This document shows positions 14,240 to 64,000 of a DNA stretch of 64,000 nt, piece after piece. The position numbers and the translations under genes are program-made. Under the pieces are notes generated by a model, which searched no databases, was not told where the DNA came from, and saw nothing but the letters and a program-made list of their open reading frames with translations. The stretch is from Raillietiella orientalis (taxonomy: Eukaryota). Position 1 is the first letter of the stretch; each line of letters starts with the position of its first letter. Location: positions 1,426,001 through 1,490,000 of the forward strand of contig JAYWIR010000011.1 in NCBI GenBank assembly GCA_036172245.1. The letters run 5' to 3'.

Positions 14240-16160
14240 GTACGAATGCTGCGCTCCGTACCAGCACGTCGTGGAGATCATCCTGTCCACAGCCACCTTC
14301 GAGAGGGTAGACTACTGGGACGCCTTCAGGCATGTGATCCAGCAGTACGACGACAGGGACTACACTCAGAGGCGTACAGGGACAATGTTCATCCACAACA
14401 CTCCCTCTCTAAGTTCTGGGAACAGTACGCGAAGCGCTTCCAGGATCGCGACGAGAAGGACATAGGATGGCTGTAGAGACACAGCCTTCAATCCGACATC
14501 TTTTACGTCCACTACGACGGCCGAGAGTGCGGAACCTCGGAGGAGATCCTGGAAGCTTTCCCTCGCCACTACACCGAGCTCTTTCTCAAGAAGAGTCTGG
14601 ACCAGGGATCTTGAGAACGCATCCGTGGCAACCTGAATAAGTGCCTGAGTTTCCGAGAAATCAAGGTAATGCGCGCTGAATTCTCTCTGGACGACATCAG
14701 GACGGCTCTCGAGCAGCTGAGCAAGGACGCGGAGGCGGGTCCCGACAGCGTGTCCGTCACGCACTACAGGCGGCTCCTGCCCTCCTACCCCCGCCTCTTC
14801 CGCCAATTGCTGAACTGCGTCGCCAGGAAACGACGAGTGCCCGCCTCCTTCCACCGATGGATGATGCAGCTACTCTCATAGTGTGGCGGTGGGGACCTCT
14901 TCACGGCCAACCAGTGGAGGCCCATCTAGGTCCTGAACTAGATTGCGAAGTGGATGGCCAAGTTCTGGGCCAGAGGACCACAAGATCGGTGCTTTCTCCG
15001 ACGCAAACGTGCTCTGTGCCTGGCAGGCGCATGTTGGATAACATCAAGTGCGCTGGAGACCATATGGGATACAACGATGTCCTGGGAAACGACCTGGTGC
15101 TGGGCTTCACCGACATCGAGAAAGCCTTCGATTCGGTGGACCACAACATGCTGACGAACATCCTTCGCAAGTCGGCCTCCTGAAGCAGAAATCCTGCAGC
15201 ACGCGGAACGCACCCTCGAAGGATCCAGACTCCGACTGCACTGGAACGGACAGACCACAGAAGACATCAGCATGGAAAGAGGAGTCCGCCAGAGGGACGC
15301 CTTGAGTTCCATGTTGTTCATCATCAATATGGAGGTATTGATTGCCCTCGTGACCAACGAGTGACGTCTTAAAGGCATCACTCTACAAGAAAAATTCACG
15401 AGAACGCACCTGGTCTCATCACACTGAAAGGAGAACGGGATCCAAAGGCATTCCAGCTACATGGAAGGCCTCAGAAATGGCTAAGGGTGCCTCAGAAAAC
15501 AGCTTCCTATCGCCAGTGGATTTAATCCACTAGCGATTGGAACGGTGCTCTGAAGTGACCTGCCACCGGACACTCAGGATAACCACCTAATGTTTTACCA
15601 TGGAGCATCCTGAGTGGATGAAGAATGAAGCTATTCACGAGAAGAAGAGAAGAAATCTGCAGAGCATGTGGTGGCATCGATACAAGACTTCATGTTTTGA
15701 TCTGTCCCACAATGCAAACAGAGTGGCATACCCTGAAAAGGGTTATTGGGCTGCCCAACACCTCAACTATGGCGATCTTGACAGGGATGTTCCAAGGAAA
15801 TGGAACTGTTCCCTGCTATAATCCCATGGTAAGAGTGACCATCACCCTCTTCATCACCTCCATCCTTGTGCGGTGGTAGAAGATGAAGGCCACCAGGAAT
15901 GCCGTATCTCTGAAAGGGCTGATCCAGAAATAGATCGGCATCAGAAACTGCGGAAGAGTCCAGGCCTGGAACTACCGTCACATCCTGAGAAGGATTGAAG
16001 GCAGCATCCAGGCTCAAACGACGCCCAGGTAATCAAGTGCAGCAAACTTTTCAGAGACCCAAAGAAGTACACTTCAAGTGAGCAATAGTGAAGTGAAGTG
16101 CAGTTCTTTTGAAATTTTTATGAATGAGATTGTAGTGTGAATGCAAAAAGAAAAATAAAT
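14240..16160 (+). mobile_element. L1/Tx1-type non-LTR retrotransposon: RT and C-terminal zinc finger, pseudogenised
   Basis: RT domains in order: FSLDDIRTALEQLSKDAEAGPDS, QWRPI*VLN, QTCSVPGRRMLDNI, DIEKAFDSVDH, RGVRQRDALSSMLF. An internal deletion follows, then CRACGGIDTRLHVLICP...W and an A-rich 3' end at ~16145-16160. Confidence 0.9.
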
Positions 16161-19989: not shown

Positions 19990-20678
19990 CACACTTATTC
20001 GGGGTGCCCGTTCGTATCTCACTGGAGGCATGCGATTTCGGGGCATCTTTCTTTGACGTGCTCGGTGGCCTCGCAGTTGATGCAGTACTTGCTCTTCCCG
20101 TAGTACCAGAGGTCGATGGGTTCTCCACCGACCACCACTTTATGGGACAGCCTTAACTCCTTGATGCGCACCACGTCAAGCTCACTAAGGATCCCGTCAA
20201 ATACGCAGAATCTGTTGGGCTTTGCCCAAAGCACGTGGACACTGCCGAATTTGTGAAGTTGCTCCTGTACGACGCTCGGTGACATCAGTACGGTAATGCC
20301 CCTTAGGTGGACCGCGTTAGAGTCGTCCACTGGAACGGGGAAGACCTGGTGGCCTCGACTCGGGGGTCCGCAACAGTCTTCGTGCTAGACACACCTCCTT
20401 GCAGGTCAACTCAGCGTGCTGTCCACGCTCCTGATCGTGATCCAAGTCACGTTCGATCTTTACGGATCCGCTTCGAAGGAACGCGCAGTGCGATCGTCGA
20501 AAACCCTGACTACCTTGTAGACTTCGGCCAAGGCTATGGCCGCTACAGAGGGCGCGGTGACCCCGGCGCTGTATTCCCTCGTCGGAGAGAAGAATGAAGC
20601 TCCGGAGACAGATGCAAGAGACGGTCTTCCGATACCCCCCTGGCTCTTTTTCGTGGTAGATTCAGGCACTTGCGCCAT
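19990..20678 (-). mobile_element. L1/Tx1-type ORF1 (gag-like, CCHC zinc knuckle), pseudogenised
   Basis: ATG at 20678 gives MAQVP...RPSLASV (SYA.V-like). Then VHLRGITVLMSPSVVQEQLHKFGSV...GEPIDLWYYGKSKYCINCEATEHVKERC, a CX2CX4HX4C knuckle. Internal stop and frameshift. Confidence 0.75.
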
Positions 20679-21781
20679 CCACACACCACCGAAGCCCAGC
20701 GACGACACCAAGTAAAGCAGGGGGTCGGGAGCGCTAACATAACACCTCCGAGTACGACCGCAAGTACGACCGCATGGAGAAAGGAATTCCCCTTCTTGTT
20801 GTTGTTTTCGCTTTTCTTCGAAATAAGAGAACGGTCGAGTGTGGAGAACTTCAGCTGCGAGTTCCAAACTTTCCACCTGTCCATACTCATCTTGTCGTAA
20901 TTTGGTTCCCAATTTGAGAAAACAATAATGTGAGGTGGTTGGAAGTACTTGATCGATCCTTGATATTTTGAGGCAAACATGATGCCGTTCTTCATGGTTT
21001 CTATAAACCCATACTGGACGATCTCCTGGTTGTCCCTTGTCAGGTCGACGACGATGATGTGTTCTCCGTTATAAATGTGGGCGGCATCAGCCTTCTTGCA
21101 GCTGTGCATGTATATGGCGCCCTTCTTTAGGTAGAGAAATTTGGCAAATGTGGTTTTGCCGTGTCCACCTTCGGGATCGAAGTACCAGTATATTTTTCTG
21201 GCGTCAGGGTTTGTTCTGATGAGTTTCAGTATGTCCATCTGCCATGTACGAAGTTGGAGGCCAGCCATGGGGTTTGGGTGTAATCTGCTTCTTGTCAATC
21301 GGAAGCATTCTTTGACGAAGTTTATGTTTTTGCTGTAGAACTTCGTATGGTTTTCCAAGATGTCAAGCTCTGTGGCTCCGTTTTTAATTTGCTGGAGAAT
21401 CTGGAAGATATTGGAATTATTATCATTATAAATTATAATTACCATGTCCTGGTAGTCGGTTGTTTCTTTGTGTTGTTGTATGAGGCCGTATGTCCATGCT
21501 TCCTTATCTTCTTTTGTGCAGTACCGTAAGTTGCTTTCGGGTGATCCTTTTGCTCGTTCGAGATGTGCTTTGTCGAACGGCGGTCGTTTGAGGCTTGGCA
21601 AGGTGCGTGGATCACGCAACTGGAAATAGCCTTGCAGGTGAGGTGTTCCTGTTGTAGCTGTTTCTTTGCCAATGACTGCGTAGGTGCATTGGCGTCTGCA
21701 CCATTCTTTTATTTGTTGGAGTTCTTCTTCGAGATAATTGCAGAGCGTGAAACACCAATACAGAAAGTGTCCGTAAGGCAT
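20543..21781 (-). CDS. rep: CRESS virus replication-associated protein (HUH endonuclease + SF3 helicase); viral part 21781-20866, then read-through into flank
   Basis: Motif I WCFTLCN, motif II TPHLQG, motif III YCTK, Walker A DPEGGHGKT, Walker B IIVVDL, motif C VFSN, Arg finger MDRW; no internal stops. Candidate 42-nt intron at 21401-21442. Confidence 0.96.
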   Translation of the reverse strand: MPYGHFLYWCFTLCNYLEEELQQIKEWCRRQCTYAVIGKETATTGTPHLQGYFQLRDPRTLPSLKRPPFDKAHLERAKGSPESNLRYCTKEDKEAWTYGLIQQHKETTDYQDMVIIIYNDNNSNIFQILQQIKNGATELDILENHTKFYSKNINFVKECFRLTRSRLHPNPMAGLQLRTWQMDILKLIRTNPDARKIYWYFDPEGGHGKTTFAKFLYLKKGAIYMHSCKKADAAHIYNGEHIIVVDLTRDNQEIVQYGFIETMKNGIMFASKYQGSIKYFQPPHIIVFSNWEPNYDKMSMDRWKVWNSQLKFSTLDRSLISKKSENNNKKGNSFLHAVVLAVVLGGVMLALPTPCFTWCRRWASVVCGWRKCLNLPRKRARGVSEDRLLHLSPELHSSLRRGNTAPGSPRPL

Positions 21782-21846
21782 GATGTCTTCAGAAATTCTG
21801 TCGAGGTGAGACTGGTGTATGCCTCATGGTGTGGTGACTGCGTAGA

Positions 21847-21882
21847 AGATGCTATCTGGTTAGTATTACCCAGATAGCATCT
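21847..21882 (+). promoter_or_regulatory. Rolling-circle replication origin stem-loop with TAGTATTAC nonanucleotide
   Basis: AGATGCTATCTGG-T-TAGTATTAC-CCAGATAGCATCT: perfect 13-bp stem, nonamer at 21861-21869, lying between the rep and cap starts. Confidence 0.96.
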
Positions 21883-22125
21883 AGCTTATTCGGCAAAACC
21901 TTGGAAATTGTGTCATGTTTCAGTTTTTTATGAGGGTGTCTGGTTAATGTCCGCAGTCGTGAAGGGCTTAGGAATGCGGAACAAGATGTACTTGTCCACG
22001 TGTGCAGGTCGTGGCATGATCCGACCTCGTGGAGGGCTTAGTAAGTCGGATGGCGTGTCTGCCACCAGCCTCAGATGAGAGGGAGGGAGGGGCTCGGTGA
22101 CGTCAGTCTTCGTTGAGTCATCGGG

Positions 22126-23044
22126 GTGGCTGCACGTGGCGGTCGCCGCGCTCGTAAGAGATATGCTGCGAAGTCTCGCGGGTTTGTTGGAGAGCGTAGG
22201 CGTGTAGCTGTTAGCGGCTATTCGACTTGCAAGAAGCGAAGACGTCCGTCGTCGTCGTGTGTTGCGATTATATCGGAGGCCGCGTGGTCGTTTGTCTAGG
22301 GCGAGACGCGTTGTGAAGAGGGATGTAATGTTAAATGCTGTGCATTATTCGTCGTTGCGGTCAGCTGATGGAGATTCTGTAAATTGTTCGTGGATGTTTA
22401 CTTACGTGGAGAACGGATGGACTTTGGCTAGCGTATTGTCTGAGCTAAATTTGTCTGAGTTTGCTCGTTATTATCGTTATGTGCGATTTCGTGGAATGGC
22501 TATGAAGATAGAGCCGATGTCATTAGGTTTGACTATCGGAAATATGGCTGAAGAGTTTGGAATGAAGGTGTCATATCGCAATTTGTTGTTGTATCAGGCG
22601 TCTGCTCAAGGTGAATTTTTTTCGTCGTTGGCTGGTATGCCTTACCATAAAGTGGAGGATGTTATAAGTGGACATAAGGAGACGAGTGGTTGTATGGCTC
22701 GTTATTTCGGTGTACGTGGCATTCGTGTGTACTCGAAGGCTTATGTAAGGAAGGATATGGAATGTTTTGGTGGACAGCTGAAACGTTGGATACGATGCCC
22801 TTGGATAGATTGTGGAGAGGGTACAGGTCTTGATCGAGAGTTGAATTGTACAATGTTTGTTGGTCGTATGCATGTACTGAAGCACATGTCTGGAGTGGAC
22901 ATACCTGATTCGATAAAGGCTAGTTGCCAGTCAGGTGTATGTCCTAAAAACGGCTCGATGACTCAAGGGTACCCAATATTCAGACTGACTCGAACATTCT
23001 ACTTAGAGTTCAAGCATCTGAGAGACCCTTCCTTGTATAATTGA
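22126..23044 (+). CDS. cap: CRESS virus capsid protein (start uncertain; main frame open 22208-23044)
   Basis: Arg-rich N-terminus (VRRRRVLRLYRRPRGRLSRARRVVKR), circovirus-type jelly-roll signature SEFARYYRYVRFRGMAMKIEP and C-terminal TFYLEFK. Position opposite rep fits. A further Arg-rich segment lies in another frame from GTG at 22126. Confidence 0.85.
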
Positions 23045-26000
23045 ATACAGAAAAAACTGTTTCTACCAGGTTTTCCCCTTGCTATCATGGAACGTCATCA
23101 GCAAAATCGCCGGATCAATGCTGAATTGTACTGATTGCGTCAGCAGCATTGAACTTGGAAGAAGAAAGATTCCCTTATGTGAACTGCTTTCCAGAGTGGC
23201 TTCAGTGGATTGATGCAGTTTTTAATGCTTCAGTGCCGCTTTGCAAGATATCTCTTGTAGTAGAAATTTCTCAGTTTTCATCATGACAGGAATTAGCTCA
23301 GTGAAGGAGGGCAGAGCTTGTTTTTTTTTTTTTTTTTCTTCCTCCAAATGAAAACCCAAGGGACTCTTTGTAAGAATTGTCATTTTTTATTTCTGTACCA
23401 ACGATTTCCACATTGTTCAGTTTTCATATGCAGAACTGTAGGAAGCACAGCGGCAGCATTGTATGCACGAGCCAAAAAGTCTCAGGAAATAGGTAGGAAA
23501 TACGACAGCAAATTTCAGCAAATTTCTTTATTTGGAATGAAGATTCCAGTTGTTCATGGAAACAAAGCGCATAAGCTACTGTTTATTCTGTAAACATTTT
23601 GCATTCTAGGGAGTGTCAAGTCACAAGGTACTCTTCCAAAGTAACTTGCCATCTGTCAGCAAACCTAGAAAGAATTCTTGCTAGGTTTGCTGGCAGATGC
23701 TTGGCAATCTGCTTCTGTCATTCTAGATCTTCCAGTGCACCAAAAATAAGGATCGGGCTGAATGTTCTACATTCGGAGATGCTGCACAAACAGGTCTCTT
23801 CGTCCCAATCCACTCAAGAGAGGGGAAAGACATTCCGCAAAGCGTAATGCGCATCGATGTAAAACAAGCATGGAGCACCAGGTAAAGAGGAAACTTGGCT
23901 GTCAAACGAGAGAAGAAGAAGCGCACAGGAGAACGAAAGTGGTCTCTTTTCAGCGGTGAGCAAGTGGCTGTCATCTCGACAGATCCCCCCAAGAGCCCAA
24001 TCCTTGTTCTCATCCACAGCAAAAGTAGCCTCAAACTCAACGAGCCGACTCAGAAACAGAGGCCAACCAGCGGCTCACGAATCACTTGCAACCGAAAGTC
24101 ACCTCGAAGCAAAAGAGGTGGAGGACTAAAAAGGACGAGGGAATGGTCTCGGTCTCATGGATCGCAGGTCACCTTCCAAGTGAAAAACAACATTGTGAGA
24201 AACCCGCATGCATAGGGAAGCACGTCTCACAAATTCCAAGAGAAACTACTGAGAATTTCTTGTTCGTGCTCGAGGCAACCCGAATCTGAATGTTGAGAGC
24301 CGATGCGATGCGTGCATCAAGTGGAGGTCATAGAAGGCGCGATCCGATAACTCAGCGAGATCAGCGCATCCTCCATGAAGGCAAGCACAAGAGTGGGCAG
24401 TCCTGGGTCTTGGCAAGTGATCGACGAGCTCGCCGTCTGCCGTGCAGACAGCGCACGCCCAGAAGAACGCTCCTTCTTTTGAAAGAGTCCATTTTCTGAA
24501 TGATGGAGTGTCTTCATTAGTTTCTTCTCACCATTCATGGTTCAATCCTTCATTCTGGAAACTCGTACTGATAGGTCTATAAATGCTTTTTACTCTTCAT
24601 TGCTATTGTATAATGTTTACAACGGTTTCTTGAAATAGGGGCTTGAAAAATATCGCAATTATTTTCCTGTTTTAATTTCATATTTGTATGCAATATCTCG
24701 TGTAACGACGTGAGCGCAAGGGCGCCGCAGATTTCAAGGCTGAGGGACGCTGTCTTTCAAACTTTGGCCCCATCAGAAACCGAGCTTTGATGGCACCCTA
24801 CTAACGAGTCCCTCGAACAAACCTGCATTTCTTTGCAGCCAGTTCGAAGTCTTAGAGCTCCTTCGCCTTGCAGCAGGTTAGACTTATTTCATAGTACTGT
24901 GAAGAAGTGCGATATCCATTTATTGTGTTCCAGCATAACGGAAGCAGTTCAGCCGTTGTCGCTTCCCTCGGGTGGAATCTTATATCAGATTTTGACATCA
25001 TCAACAGCTTCGATGGTGATGCAAGAGTGAGCTCTTCCCTTCTCTTTCCCCTTTGTTTTATCATCCTTCTGGAACTCAATCCAACAAGGAAAAAAGGAGG
25101 TGGAACATGCCAATCTCTCGGGCTGATATAATCCTTTCATGGCATTCCAGACAACGAATAGATCTTGTTAGCTCAGTGCATGACTTGCGATTTTTGCCTC
25201 TAAATGGAAACACGAAGCATTCGAATTTACACCCATATTAAATTTTCATTCGTTGAATTTCCGTTTGTGAAATCCGAGCTCCTCTTTAGCATACTAATTA
25301 AAAAGAGATCAGTTCCATGGTTCTTGTGTGCCTTTATCCGATGTTGTTTTTGTCGGCTTCCAAGTCTCAAAATTTCTAATTTGTTTGGCTGGTAGCTAAC
25401 TCGAGTGAGTATCCTGGTAGCTCCTCTTCAGTTTTATTTCGTATTTTTTCCCCTTTGTTCATGCTGCAAAATCTGCAGCCTTTTTCCACCTGAGAACCAA
25501 ATACCTGCCGACACATAGCTGCAGGGCACAAGTGCCATTTTCTATGAGTTTCTGACCTATCGGGTTCGAATGCTTGACTTTTCTCGAATAAACCGATCTG
25601 AACGATTTCTTGCCTGAGATTTATTCGAACCTTCCGATGGGATGAAAAGTTGGAATGCACTTGAAAGGAAAAGAAATGCCGCACTGAATTCTTCGGGAGT
25701 TGTTGACATTTGTGCTGTGTTCTTGAAGAAACGGAAGCATACGTGTCGGTGTCGATGACGAAAACAGGCGAGTAATGTAGTACTCATGTCAATCATGCAA
25801 CTTTCATGTTCGTCACCGTTACTGTCCGCTGTAGTGTGGAATTGATGCTTAAAACTGGATCTACTTGGATGAACCCATTTTCAGTTTTCCGATTTTGTGT
25901 ACTTTAATCATGAGCCCATCCAATGTACTCTTCGGTTCCAGTGAAGAAGGCACTTAGCAGTGTTAAAAAGGGACTGTTTGCTGTCTTTGAACGCAAAATT

Positions 26001-28858: not shown

Positions 28859-31733
28859 ATGGCAGACTGGGAAGAGATAAGAAAACTTGCTGCAGACTTC
28901 CAAAGGGCTCAATCATCAGGTCCAACCCAAAAGTAGGTCCACTGTGTTCAAACTTGATGTGACCTTACTGCTAATTAAATGGGGTTTTGCAGGCTATCTG
29001 AAAAAAACTGCATTGAAGTTATAACCAAATTGCAACAGCTGAAGTTGTTAGAAGTATATTTTACTGTTGATGGCAAAGAATATGTGACTCCTAAACAGTT
29101 ATGCAAGGAAATAAGAGATGAAGTATATATTCAAGGTGATCGGAAAGAAAAGTTTTGAAAATGTTTTATGAGTAATGTCCAGGCCGAATCAACATAGTAA
29201 ATTTAGCCAAGACTCTAAATATTGATTTGAGCTGCATTGAAAGTCGTGTACCTGAAATTGTTAAAATGGACCCTAAAGTACACTTTGTTTTGGGACAGTT
29301 TGTGCATGATTGTTATTTGGATCGCATTTCTGAAGAAATTAATGAAAAGCTCCAACAAGAAGGCCACTTGTTAATAACTGACCTTGTCAAATTATATGAT
29401 TTTCCACTGGATTTTGTTCAGCAGGTTTGCATCCACTGATACTCATCTGGGGAACTTTCAGTTTAAAAATCGTACAGATGCTAAATAGCAGATTGAATCT
29501 AATTGTGCAAGGCCGAGTGGATTCCTCTTCTAACATCATCTTTACAGAAGCTCATTTATCCAGAAGTCAGGCTCATATCCTTGGTAGTTTGTCAGCTGTA
29601 ACTCGTCCAATTTCTTGTGCATATCTTATAAATTTGTATCATTTCCAAGAAAGGATTTTTTTTAGTAAGACCTCAAAATATAATTCAACATTTAATCCAT
29701 GTTATCTTCAGATATTGTAGATGAGCTGATTTCTTCTGGTAAATTAGCTGGCAGCTTAGTAGGAGGTCGTCAGTCAGTGAAAGCTGTATATGTTCCCGAG
29801 TTATATTCTCGTGCACAATCTGAATGGGTACTGCACAATCTTCTGCAGAATGGTTGTGTAGGCAAGTATTTGTTTTCAAAGTGTGAAAAGGATGGTATTT
29901 ACAGTGTATGTCCAGAATACAGTGCTTTGGGGAAACTGGGAGTCAGTGATCCAGAAGCTTTCATCAAAAGGTTGAATCCTGGGAAGGACATAGTTTATTT
30001 GTCATGGTGTTGTCTAGGCAGCTCTTTGCTGGTTCAAGTTGAAGCCTGCATTGAAGAGGTTGCCAATGAAGGTAGTGCTTGGCTTGATGTTCTGGTAAGC
30101 ATGAAGATTAGCAGTGTTATCCTAAGAAATTTTGTAGCCTGTTTTCCCAGCATCTTTCACTCCTAAGGATGTTGAGAATGTCATCAAGCATGTGCTTCTA
30201 CATATGCAAGTGGGAGCTCAGGTTGATCTTTATCAGCATTCCATTGTGGTGAACAAATCAGTTCTTGCGGAAATCTTTAAGAGATTGGAAAATGGGATGC
30301 AGGAGAGAGCTATGAAAGTGAGTTCTGTTTAAAAATTGCAAATCTGCTGATACCTGTCAAGGTAGCTCAACACAATCAACTGTACAGCAGTCAGTCTCAT
30401 GGAAAAGCACAGAAACCACAAAAGGTGGTAGAAAAATCCAAAACAGATAAGAAAGAAGAAAGACGTCGCCGAGCCATTACAGGTCATCAGGGAGGCCATC
30501 AAGGAGGAAACACAAAGGTCAGTAACTTTAGTGAATGAATAGTATTTTTGAAATTATAGTGTGCTATTATGGCTTTTCATTTTAGGGTAGAGAATCTAAG
30601 ACGAAATCAACGAAAAAGAAGACATCACATGAAATTCAAGATACTGAGGAAGAGTTAGTAAATGAAAATGTTCCATCTTTATTTACTTATATGTCAGTTG
30701 ATGAACTGCATGCCTTTTTGAAAGAGGAAACTGATTTATGTGATGCTCCAGAAAATGTTCTTCATGATGTCTCTCACACTATGTGGCCTTCTTTGTGTGC
30801 TACTTATCAAATTGTAGCCCGAGAAGCAGCTGAAGCTGCTTTATCTGCAAGTGTTGAAAAGCGACGTCAGCAACATTATCAGCTTCAAGAGCGACTGAAT
30901 ACCCAAGTTGCTATGCTGCATCTATACAAAAAAGGAATTGAGCAATTTGAGAGTGATCAACAACAGAAAGAGCTAACTTTGTACCTTTTGCGCAATGTGG
31001 GTGCAGATCTAGTGGGTTTGATTTTGCTACATTTGTCTGAAGCAGAAGCATTAGCCCTCCCTAACTCAGAGGTATTAATTCTCACTTACATTTCTTGTTT
31101 AATGTTTTCACATAAGCAACGTACCAGACTTCTTCATCAGCTTGATCCTGGACTTCAGAGTGATCTTCTCAAAATGCTTAAATGCACCTGCTTAGAGGAA
31201 TTTTTTCCTCTGCTGAATCTTTTTCTTGAAAAACCTGAGTGTGACTTGATGCTGAAAAAAATGGATCAGAGGAGAAACAAGTACGTGTGCCCTAAAAGAC
31301 TCACTTCATACAGTGTTTCTTGATAGAGAGATCTTGCAGGATCATGTAAGAGGTTTACAGGAACAACTTGAACATTCACATGAGGGACCAAATATTTTGC
31401 TTCTTTCATGCCTTCTCCTGTTCCAGTTCTATACAGGATTCATGTTGTGTGCTTCTGGGAAATTCGTTACTAATATTTTACATTTGCTAAACTCATTCAT
31501 ACCAGAAGATGTTTATCAGCTTCTGGAAGACTGTCGAGGTTAGTAACAATAATTAAAAACAAGCATTGTGTTTGTTGATAGAAATTGTAATCAAATGTGT
31601 TATGGAACAAGGAGATCCAAATAGCCATAGTGTTTCTGAAGAACAGCTACTTCGCCTGTCTTCCAGAGTGAGGACAACTGTGATTAATCTTGTGAAATCT
31701 GGAGATACTGAGAAAGCTGATAGCCAAAGATAG
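28859..31733 (+). CDS. UFL1: E3 UFM1-protein ligase 1, 12 exons, ~774 aa
   Basis: N-terminus MADWEEIRKLAADFQRAQ...KLSEKNCIEV is the UFL1 signature. Exons 28859-28932, 28993-29135, 29183-29424, 29478-29664, 29712-29861, 29916-30094, 30138-30317, 30362-30517, 30586-31071, 31117-31280, 31327-31538, 31582-31733 sum to 2325 nt in frame and end in TAG. Confidence 0.95.
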
Positions 31734-62366: not shown

Positions 62367-64000
62367 GTAAAGGCTGCTCCTCTCCCTTTCTCCTTCCCCA
62401 CCCCCAGCCCTGTGGGTGAAGAGAATCGCGCGGCAACGGCGTCTCCCGCCAGCCGGCTGCACACCTTTCCCTTCACCGCCTTCGAAGGGGGCCATCGTTC
62501 GTCGGGAAAAACGGAACGCCTAAAGGGAAAGGAGCTCTCAATCTCCCAACCCGCCGCCGTGACCACCCTTTTTTCAGGACGGGCATCCGGGCTGCGCGCT
62601 CGCGCCGACCGATCTCCTGCAGCTCGCTGAACGCTCAAGCGGACTGCAACCGGGGGATCCCTCCAGGAGGGTTTCAGGAGCGGGGAGGGAAGGGGACCGC
62701 ATCCCTCGGATCCGGGGTACTTGCCAGTACCCTAGGCCATCACACGGGATCCGGAGGCGGGATGATCGCGGCACCGCCGCCGCCGTCCTCACTCCTTACC
62801 CCCATTCCTTGGACACTTCTGGGGTTTCAGAGCCGCCCGTGGTCCCTTAAGGGCGCCTGGCTCTTCACTCTTTCCATTTCCCCCCTCCCCCTTCCGCTCT
62901 CGACCGGAGGCGGACCGCCGTCTCCCCCTCCTCGGAGGGAAGGACCAGAAGGGCGTGAAGCTCGCGTCCCCTCCTCCTTCCCGGGAGCATCACCCCTCGT
63001 GATACTTCCGGGAAGATCCGTACTCCTCGCCTCCTCCATGGGACCCGGATTTCGAAGCTCTTCCGGGATTTGCGGCAGAGCTCCAGAGGAGGGAAAGGCT
63101 CGGGGATATGCGAGGAGGGGAGAAAGAGGAGTGGGAAAAAGGAGGCTCCCCAAAAACGCCATCTGGCTACTTCCCTCCTCCTCCTCTGCACGCCCCGAGG
63201 AGAGCGAAGCAGGAGCCCTCCCTCACCTCTCTTGAGGAACGGATCCCACACCAGGGGCCGTCTCCGCGGAGACGGAGATGGGACCCCGTCTTAGGGACGG
63301 AAAAGCTTCAAGAGGGGCGAGCTAACCTCTGACCTTTAAGGATTCCCCTTTCCCTCCCTTCTTCGCCTCTTCATTTTCTCATCCGAAAGCACGTGAGGAG
63401 AAGTGCTACTAGCGGGCATCGGCAGCGGTGGAAGCCTCCAATCCAAGGACAGATGAAGGAAGAAAAGGATAGGAAACGGGATGCAAGGAAAAACTCAAAC
63501 TCCTCGTCACCACCACCCCCCTTTTCTCTTGATCAAGAGTTCGAAGCTCTCTCCCTTTGTTCTCTCGAGCTCATCGCTTGAAAACCTCTCCCCTGTCCTC
63601 CGGAAACGATCAAAGAACGACGCGCGCGAGCTTCTCCTTTGTGATCTCGCTATCCTCCTCTTCCTCCTTTCCCGTCTGCTGAAGGATGCTGTCCAACGTC
63701 CTCCTTAGTCAGCGGAAGTGAGGCGGGACGGCCGAGCCGTGGGGAGGCACCCCTGCTGCAAAGTTGACTCTGCTGGAGTTTCCTCCAGCAGAGCCAGCTG
63801 GCGCTTCGTCAGGTGGGCACGAACCCTGGCCCGAGCGCGATTCTCATCTTCGTCTAGAAAAGTCCGGGAAGTTTTGAAGTCTGGGAAGTTTGAGTTTGGG
63901 AAGTCTGGGAAGAGGGAGGAAGAGAAACGAAGCGGATTTTCCGGTCGCCCCTTCGGATCGAACGAAGACCAAGGAATTGCGCTCCTTGCACACGCGTTTT

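Follow-up and report, generated by a model that had tools for sequence, protein, structure and literature searches.

The virus-derived unit and its genes

The window, that is the whole stretch of 64,000 nucleotides analysed here, contains a Rep gene and a putative capsid gene on the two sides of an origin stem-loop. Rep is encoded on the minus strand by an ORF of 412 aa (20543..21781) with HUH endonuclease and SF3 helicase domains. It matched the Pfam families Viral_Rep (9.7e-16) and, weakly, RNA_helicase (0.0012), and all Rep motifs are conserved in the homologue alignment. The origin stem-loop is located on the plus strand at 21847..21882 and consists of an inverted repeat with a 13-bp stem and TAGTATTAC (21861-21869) in its loop. 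This element also gave a sub-threshold Rfam match to ssNA-helicase RNA (RF03070; 20 bits compared to a gathering score of 41.5). The putative Cap with its arginine-rich arm is encoded on the plus strand at 22163..23044, starting with ATG 22163 and continuing as a stop-free frame from 22208 to 23041 up to the stop codon at 23042-23044. An in-frame TAG (22205-22207) separates this ATG from the arginine-rich arm. This codon may be removed by splicing, be read through or have arisen as a lesion once the virus had integrated. The putative Cap showed a weak Pfam match to Circo_capsid (2.5e-5; 25.1 bits, below the cut-off of 36.2), and its predicted fold was unusable (pLDDT 30). The initial annotation had assigned the hairpins discussed below to a viral intergenic region. 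This assignment is borne out by the Viral_Rep-containing Rep, the arginine-rich putative Cap and the TAGTATTAC stem-loop, which place both hairpins in the large intergenic region between rep and cap.

The approximate extent of the virus-derived DNA, 20830..22900, was derived from an excess of G+T on the plus strand. In addition to a 400-nt profile, a two-change-point fit of the G+T skew was computed, the best of which set the limits at 20930-22880, with a skew of +0.25 inside and +0.01 outside. Confinement of the excess to about 20930-22880 suggests that only about 2.1 kb of the DNA is of viral origin. Since the skew ends near 20800-20930, the last 90 or so codons of Rep appear to read into other DNA, and this end of the ORF (about 20543-20820) probably represents read-through into sequence that is not viral. 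This reading is tempered by the finding that 3 out of 20 aligned Rep homologues are also long-tailed.

From circoviruses and geminiviruses we take the strand carrying the nonanucleotide to be the nicked and packaged (virion) strand, with the nick after T7. As TAGTATTAC is found on the plus strand, this strand would be the one that is nicked and packaged, and cap would be encoded in virion sense. The G+T excess of the plus strand fits a packaged strand.

The DNA around the unit includes five consecutive stop-free frames (29176-31540) that match successive parts of the E3 UFM1 ligase UFL1, and an ORF with a CCHC zinc knuckle abuts the viral unit. A search with the UFL1 exons among longer proteins gave no match, and taxonomic assignment reached Eukaryota only, with scores below 0.9. 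The most fitting reading of the unit is a nearly complete CRESS genome, integrated in eukaryotic chromosomal DNA and opened near the 3'-ends of both genes. Its relatives are distant. Among 5.8 billion clustered proteins the best Rep homologue covered 71% of the query at 34% identity (E 6e-50), and the highest local identity was 45%, over 31% of the query. For Cap, no homologue was found among 1.84 billion representatives, and none in viral_contigs. A near-complete genome of an isolated CRESS lineage fixed in a eukaryotic chromosome would tie this lineage to its host.

Sequence and predicted folding of two hairpin units

Two hairpin units, HP1 and HP2, were detected on the plus strand both as direct and as inverted repeats. 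HP1 (21950..21980) has a 6-bp stem, TCCGCA/TGCGGA, and a 19-nt loop, GTCGTGAAGGGCTTAGGAA; HP2 (22019..22051) has a 7-bp stem, ATCCGAC/GTCGGAT, and a loop of the same length, CTCGTGGAGGGCTTAGTAA. In the repeat search they form a 31-nt direct repeat with 24 out of 31 identical positions (77%) and a start-to-start spacing of 70 nt. The loops have the same orientation and agree at 16 of 19 positions (84%), which makes the loop better conserved than the variable part of the stem. When the two units are aligned as two rows, all 12 stem cells are Watson-Crick; four pairs are invariant, and 2 of the 6 differ on both sides, from C-G to A-T and from A-T to C-G. Shifting the partner arm by 1-3 columns reduces stem pairing to 17-42%. 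A shuffle control of this alignment (126 of 500) is powerless with only two rows. Sequence and repeat search thereby confirm the two hairpins, their distance of 70 nt, the likeness of their loops and the compensatory changes in their stems, as they had originally been described.

The similarity between the units is confined to the hairpins, and the flanking 39-40 nt align no better than shuffled sequences (p 0.63 and 0.43). Several simple origins of the repeat were rejected: a decayed 70-nt tandem duplication because the flanks are unrelated, an inversion of the loop (flip-flop) because both loops share one orientation, and a coding repeat because 70 is not divisible by 3 and the units are not covered by any ORF of at least 60 aa.

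HP1 starts 67 nt after the origin stem and 82 nt 3' of the presumed nick, and 111 nt separate the end of HP2 from the likely cap ATG. The stretch from HP1 to HP2 covers 82-184 nt 3' of the presumed nick. This DNA is intergenic and non-coding, and TAGTATTAC and the G+T excess are found on the same strand as the units. A further small hairpin, ACAAG-atgta-CTTGT (21981..21995, plus strand), immediately 3' of HP1, was present in every fold computed.

Pair probabilities were computed in a 280-nt context (21883-22162). HP1 is predicted robustly in every fold, with probabilities of 0.88-1.0 in plus-strand ssDNA, 0.74-0.99 in plus-strand RNA and 0.89-0.99 in minus-strand DNA. For HP2 the values were 0.63-0.79 (innermost pair 0.19) in plus-strand ssDNA and 0.70-0.90 in minus-strand DNA. 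In plus-strand RNA they dropped to 0.12-0.15. Competition comes from an alternative 11-bp helix (21996..22032, plus strand), found in the centroid folds and in the RNA minimum-energy fold, in which CCACG (21996-22000) and AGGTCG (22006-22011) pair with CGACCTCGTGG (22022-22032). The probability of this helix is 0.17 in plus-strand ssDNA and 0.08 in minus-strand DNA, and 0.71-0.75 in plus-strand RNA; it outdoes HP2 when the plus strand is folded as cap-sense RNA (about 0.75 versus 0.15). As judged by these predictions, the twin-hairpin picture fits ssDNA and not cap-sense RNA. Both DNA strands are predicted to fold about equally, and all stem pairs are Watson-Crick. Owing to this similarity, the virion strand is not distinguished from its complement by folding alone.

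An outer stem around HP2 had also been proposed. Its arms, GTGGCA (22011-22016) and TGCCAC (22060-22065), exist as an inverted repeat in the plus-strand sequence (22011..22065), but their pairing is not predicted: the probability is 0.01 in plus-strand ssDNA, 0.0-0.01 in minus-strand DNA, 0.0 in plus-strand RNA and 0.15-0.17 in minus-sense RNA. The arms stand as sequence, and the stem was rejected as a structure. A conserved structure inside the loops was likewise rejected. HP1 has an inner 2-bp extension, which a G-to-T change in the loop breaks in HP2, and HP2 has a CCTC/GAGG mini-stem; each is missing from the other copy.

The thermodynamic stability of the two units differs. HP1 alone folds as DNA with -7.3 kcal/mol (z -3.44), and none of 200 shuffles was equally stable; as RNA it folds with -13.4 kcal/mol (z -2.98). 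HP2 together with the outer arms was no more stable than shuffled sequences (z -0.94 as DNA, -0.29 as RNA), and the same was found for the 124-nt hairpin region as RNA (z -0.82).

Chance, constraint and searches for related motifs

The repeated loop is rare in the window. Allowing up to 2 mismatches, a 16-nt loop motif was found at 2 sites in the 64 kb, namely in HP1 and in HP2, compared to 0.15 expected, and none of 100 shuffles reached 2 matches. A scan for twin hairpins (stems of at least 6 bp, equal loops of 10-25 nt that are at least 75% alike, at most 300 nt apart) detected a single pair among 82 CRESS sequences, namely HP1 and HP2, and none in 5 shuffles of the set. Likewise, none of 400 dinucleotide shuffles of the viral unit yielded a twin pair, and the best shuffled loop identity was 58%, compared to 84% observed.

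Since a repeat arises by copying and not by chance, the sharper question is whether the fold was kept. In a neutral simulation of 200,000 copies of HP1 with 7 random substitutions each, the stem remained intact in 2.8%. Among these copies, 0.9% had one or more compensated pairs and 0.06% had two or more. The initial annotation had stated that the stems differ by compensatory changes, and these frequencies, 2.8% for intact stems and 0.06% for two compensated pairs, support it. Conservation of the loop between unrelated flanks indicates constraint on the HP1/HP2 unit. To judge from the two copies in this one genome, both hairpins look maintained as structures, which would imply selection on pairing.

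Related viruses were collected by a Rep-profile scan of IMG/VR, in which 586 of 638 candidates were recognised as relatives. From these 586, the top 80 were taken as 78 loci, with Rep identities of 25-52% in the best segment, and together with 3 more loci these formed a set of 81 CRESS loci. A covariance model built from HP1 and HP2 found no further match at E<0.1 in the window and the 81 loci (261,755 bases). Its next-best match (15.9 bits, E 0.28) was located at 63040-63071, outside the virus. The fetched relatives were thus found to lack the motif, but their Reps are only 25-52% identical and their intergenic regions are unalignable, which makes absence of the motif from these distant relatives uninformative. 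Because the motif was found in no relative, the covariation rests on one comparison, that of HP1 with HP2.

Pattern searches gave a similar result. The full loop pattern had no match in viral_contigs. In metagenome contigs it had 53 matches in 52 loci, none of them with a flanking stem of at least 6 bp; the best stem, of 5 bp at locus L105, is within chance. About 32 of these 53 matches represent one unrelated gut-bacterial repeat that has a CCCTCC/GGAGGG stem of its own. A looser loop pattern matched 17 loci with flanking stems of at most 2 bp. Two half-unit patterns yielded at least 119 and 88 matches, and none among the matches listed had arms in register. One chance partner occurred among the half-unit matches, at locus L207. 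Rfam models searched against both strands of 20300-23800 gave 5 matches with E<=10, all below the gathering score and none overlapping the hairpins.

In those parts of the literature that we consulted, hairpin pairs between the genes of a CRESS virus were not described. The hairpin pair is unusual: it occurs in 1 of the 82 CRESS sequences examined and matches no single-strand signal described in this literature.

A candidate single-stranded signal and its alternatives

Compensated stems, a conserved loop and sharp unit boundaries point to a hairpin that forms on single-stranded nucleic acid and presents its loop. Our tentative preference is to regard HP1 and HP2 as a duplicated cis-acting stem-loop module of a CRESS-DNA virus that is recognised by a protein on ssDNA. 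Such a module would act on the virion (plus) strand in its single-stranded state. Its short stem, in which pairing would matter and sequence would not, may hold out the conserved 19-nt loop with its TCGTGRAGGGCTTAGKAA core, and this loop would be recognised sequence-specifically by a protein. The repeat, its perfect stems, the two compensated pairs, the place beside the origin and the predicted folding as ssDNA are shown here. Selection for the pairing, reading of the loop by a protein and the process that the module would serve are inferred.

Hairpins other than the origin have established roles in ssDNA replicons, namely in the initiation of the complementary strand and in packaging. By analogy, the role ranked most likely, itself an unlikely one, would be to mark, on ssDNA that has just entered or been displaced, the place where host primase or polymerase begins complementary-strand synthesis. 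For geminiviruses and nanoviruses, the part of PMC10653810 available to us describes complementary-strand priming that maps to conserved non-coding regions near potential stem-loops. Recognition by the capsid protein for packaging, which would again be a role assigned by analogy, is ranked second and considered quite unlikely. The circovirus 'packaging signals' described in the available part of a recent preprint are 3-4-nt contact sites between Cap and DNA without a hairpin (bioRxiv 10.64898/2026.03.27.714808). Another single-strand function seems very improbable.

The single-stranded module has to be weighed against the observations that only two copies exist in one genome and that HP2 is unexceptional in stability (z -0.94) and has a competing helix. 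In addition, the approximately 200 nt around the hairpins are rich in palindromic motifs of the transcription factor type, which allows a double-stranded reading of the conserved loop sequence. It is possible, if rather doubtful, that the repeat is a duplicated promoter or enhancer element of double-stranded DNA, in which the 19-nt core is a transcription factor site for the divergent rep and cap promoters and the hairpins are irrelevant. The units are located upstream of both genes, 111-213 nt from the cap ATG and 169-270 nt from the rep ATG. CACGTG is found between the hairpins (21997) and again at 22133, and the latter copy lies together with TGACGTCA (22098) and TGAGTCA (22114) between HP2 and ATG 22163, so that the cluster spans 21997..22138. 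We take these motifs to be G-box/E-box, CRE and AP-1 sites (bZIP/bHLH-like). A CGTG core is present in each hairpin loop, and the intergenic region contains six CGTG, a count reached by 75 of 2000 shuffles (11 of 2000 for a hand-picked segment). The HP2 loop also includes TTAGTAA, presumably a fungal AP-1 (Yap1) site. With 381 nt, compared to a median of 155 nt in 21 ambisense relatives, of which 5 have at least 381 nt by this crude measure, the intergenic region leaves room for regulatory DNA. However, a promoter element gives no reason for perfect arms of 6-7 bp in both copies or for compensated changes as rare as 0.06% under neutrality, the motif matches were chosen post hoc rather than from a motif library, and a spacer of 19 nt is too long for the half-sites of one dimer.

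A duplicate without function would explain the arms differently. Here a quasi-palindrome was copied once, and its arms stayed complementary by luck or by template switching within ssDNA hairpins during replication, a process known as quasi-palindrome correction. The compensated positions are adjacent (CA/TG to AC/GT) and could represent one templated event per arm. Such a by-product would also agree with the presence of two copies only, with the unexceptional thermodynamics of HP2 and with the lack of a homologue in the covariance, loop-pattern and half-motif searches (the last among the matches listed). We nevertheless consider it unlikely, as templated correction accounts for the arms and not for the conserved loop. 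Conservation of the loop (84%) and of the outer part of the stem between flanks without similarity indicates constraint on the unit, and CRESS genomes are compact, with a twin hairpin in only 1 of the 82 examined.

HUH transposases bind subterminal hairpins, and the units might by the same token be accessory recognition hairpins for the HUH endonuclease Rep that serve in its loading, in the timing of termination or as decoys. They occupy the nicked strand not far from the origin. The origin loop TTAGTATTAC begins with six bases similar to TTAG(G/T)A, a motif present in the loops of both units (we estimate the chance of such a 6-nt match at roughly a few per cent), and a 12/15 copy of the origin 5' arm is found just upstream of HP1. 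Within 479 nt, however, about 0.4 such arm copies and about 1.7 such 6-mer matches are expected by our estimates, and the arm copy was accordingly rejected as a feature. Since ATTAC, a part of the nonanucleotide, is missing from the loops, they are not expected to contain a nick site. As far as the available part of PMC10653810 goes, CRESS Reps bind short double-stranded iterons beside the stem and not distant hairpins. Altogether, accessory hairpins for Rep appear improbable.

The suggestion of the initial annotation that the hairpins form a translation element in the 5'-leader of the cap mRNA is very hard to maintain. The units are in cap sense, and HP1 folds well as RNA (-13.4 kcal/mol, z -2.98). 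HP2, in contrast, loses to the competing helix as plus-sense RNA (0.12-0.15 versus 0.71-0.75; 0.63-0.79 as ssDNA), and the 124-nt region is no more stable than shuffles as RNA. Moreover, any leader starting upstream of HP1 includes six ATGs before 22163, the promoter-type motifs lie downstream of the hairpins, and there is no Rfam match to the hairpins.

To our knowledge, it is largely unknown how CRESS viruses outside plants start their complementary strand and select ssDNA for packaging. The hairpin module beside the origin, which is small, has sharp boundaries and keeps its loop, is a concrete candidate for such a signal. For HP1 and HP2 together, a function as complementary-strand origin or as encapsidation signal of a deep-branching eukaryotic CRESS virus is, in our estimate, not likely. 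If true, a structure-defined ssDNA signal that is read through its loop would have been preserved intact in an integrated copy, and no earlier element of this sort would have had its sequence and fold defined except in plant ssDNA viruses. Should the repeat prove to be a promoter site that was duplicated, or a by-product of mutation, it would be an ordinary finding.

Comparison with known systems

Two units of about 30 nt upstream of divergent promoters and among bZIP/bHLH-type motifs recall the duplicated enhancer repeats of small DNA viruses. Those repeats, however, can do without self-complementary arms, and compensating changes are not seen in them. Like the iterons of CRESS viruses, the units are repeated directly within the intergenic region that holds the origin of an ssDNA virus with a Rep gene. 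In contrast to HP1 and HP2, each of which is self-complementary, iterons are described as short, double-stranded and abutting the origin stem in the part of PMC10653810 at hand. The difference from iterons that had been pointed out for these hairpins holds, since each unit measures 31 nt, the two follow each other at a spacing of 70 nt and the first begins 67 nt past the origin stem. Better iteron candidates are located on the other side of this stem, where TGGTGT occurs twice, followed by GGTGAC (about 21813-21838). Identity of the units with an origin stem-loop was rejected, because their loops are without a nonanucleotide of the NANTATTAC type and have only TTAG(G/T)A in common with the origin loop; the origin is the stem-loop at 21847-21882.

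The priming regions of plant CRESS viruses (the common region of begomoviruses, the small intergenic region of mastreviruses and CR-M of babuviruses) are, according to the available part of PMC10653810, also non-coding regions of the virion strand near a potential stem-loop that act in cis on ssDNA. They are defined by mapped primers and not by a repeated hairpin with a common loop, and no sequence similarity between these regions and the two units was seen.

A similar arrangement is found in bacterial hosts. The minus-strand origins and the packaging hairpin of Ff phages as well as the plasmid origins of the ssoA type are intergenic hairpins of ssDNA rolling-circle replicons beside the nick, which are read by proteins only in single-stranded form. 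These are long, imperfect hairpins, each of them unique and displaced last, whereas HP1 and HP2 are two copies of one 31-nt unit that would be displaced first after the nick. In ssRNA viruses, packaging signals consist of several hairpins with a common loop motif on variable stems. HP1 and HP2 resemble these in their conserved loops (16/19) and in stems of which 2 of 6 pairs vary, in a sample of two, and in the presence of a Cap with an arginine-rich arm. They differ in that there are only two, clustered and not dispersed along the genome, with loops of 19 nt. Judged by analogy, the closest functional counterparts of HP1 and HP2 would be the single-strand signals found in other rolling-circle replicons.

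Extent of the integrated virus

The region 20543-23044 is a near-complete CRESS-DNA virus genome within eukaryotic DNA and includes Rep, the origin stem-loop and a putative Cap. The limits of the virus core, at about 20830-22900 on the plus strand, are marked by the plus-strand excess of G+T. The Rep ORF extends about 90 codons past the end point of most homologues. This additional stretch (20543-20820), which has a GC content of 55-58%, lacks strand skew and contains an exact 12-nt tandem repeat (AGTACGACCGCA x2, 20751-20774), probably represents read-through over the integration junction.

Flanking and host DNA

Directly adjoining the viral unit is a stop-free frame on the minus strand (20022-20384), which terminates in a CX2CX4HX4C zinc knuckle. 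No Pfam family matched this frame with an E-value of 0.01 or below. The frame may derive from a retroelement; a weak RVT_1 match was found at 14680-15180. On the other side, about 600 nt past the cap stop and beyond the skewed region, a 50-nt palindrome (23650-23699) is composed of 25-nt arms that are 92% complementary and have no spacer. The Rfam miRNA-precursor match over this palindrome is sub-threshold (17.3 bits vs. a gathering score of 100).

In the gene for UFL1 (E3 UFM1 ligase, 29176-31540, plus strand), Pfam coverage is contiguous across five successive stop-free frames. The reading frame changes every few hundred bases, and very short introns or frameshifts are therefore indicated. 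No homologue turned up in a word-based search of longer proteins. Of the 15 largest non-viral ORFs in the 64-kb window, only the UFL1 exon gave a Pfam match. GC content across the window (1-64000) ranges from 31-33% at about 26-28 kb to 62-67% at 36-44 kb and 54-64 kb.

Intergenic motifs and the start of the putative Cap

A cluster of palindromic motifs, which we take to be of promoter type (two copies of CACGTG, TGACGTCA and TGAGTCA, 21997-22138), lies in the stretch that separates the hairpins from the cap ATG, and TTAGTAA is present in the loop of the second hairpin, HP2. Directly upstream of the first hairpin, HP1, a 12/15 copy of the origin 5' arm and loop start was found (21932-21950, GAGGGTGTCTGGTTA vs. 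GATGCTATCTGGTTA), and GTGTCTG recurs directly after HP2 (22055-22061). Given the size of the region, neither recurrence exceeds chance.

The putative Cap has an arginine-rich N-terminal arm, which is in frame with the ATG at 22163 but separated from it by a single TAG (22205-22207); the next ATG after this stop (22328) is already past the arm. Splicing, read-through or a post-integration lesion may account for the TAG. Removal of a candidate GT...AG intron (22173-22214, 42 nt) would preserve the frame.

Relation to other sequences

The 18-nt loop pattern of the hairpins has 53 matches in 52 loci of metagenome contigs (L082-L133, e.g. L089:3001-3178). About 32 of these matches are embedded in an unrelated repeat of gut-metagenome contigs, with identical flanks and their own CCCTCC/GGAGGG stem, and a single 51.8-kb contig carries the pattern twice at a spacing of 160 nt. 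The closest Rep homologue shares 34% identity across 71% of the query, and a search for homologues of the putative Cap found none; the virus lineage is therefore isolated.
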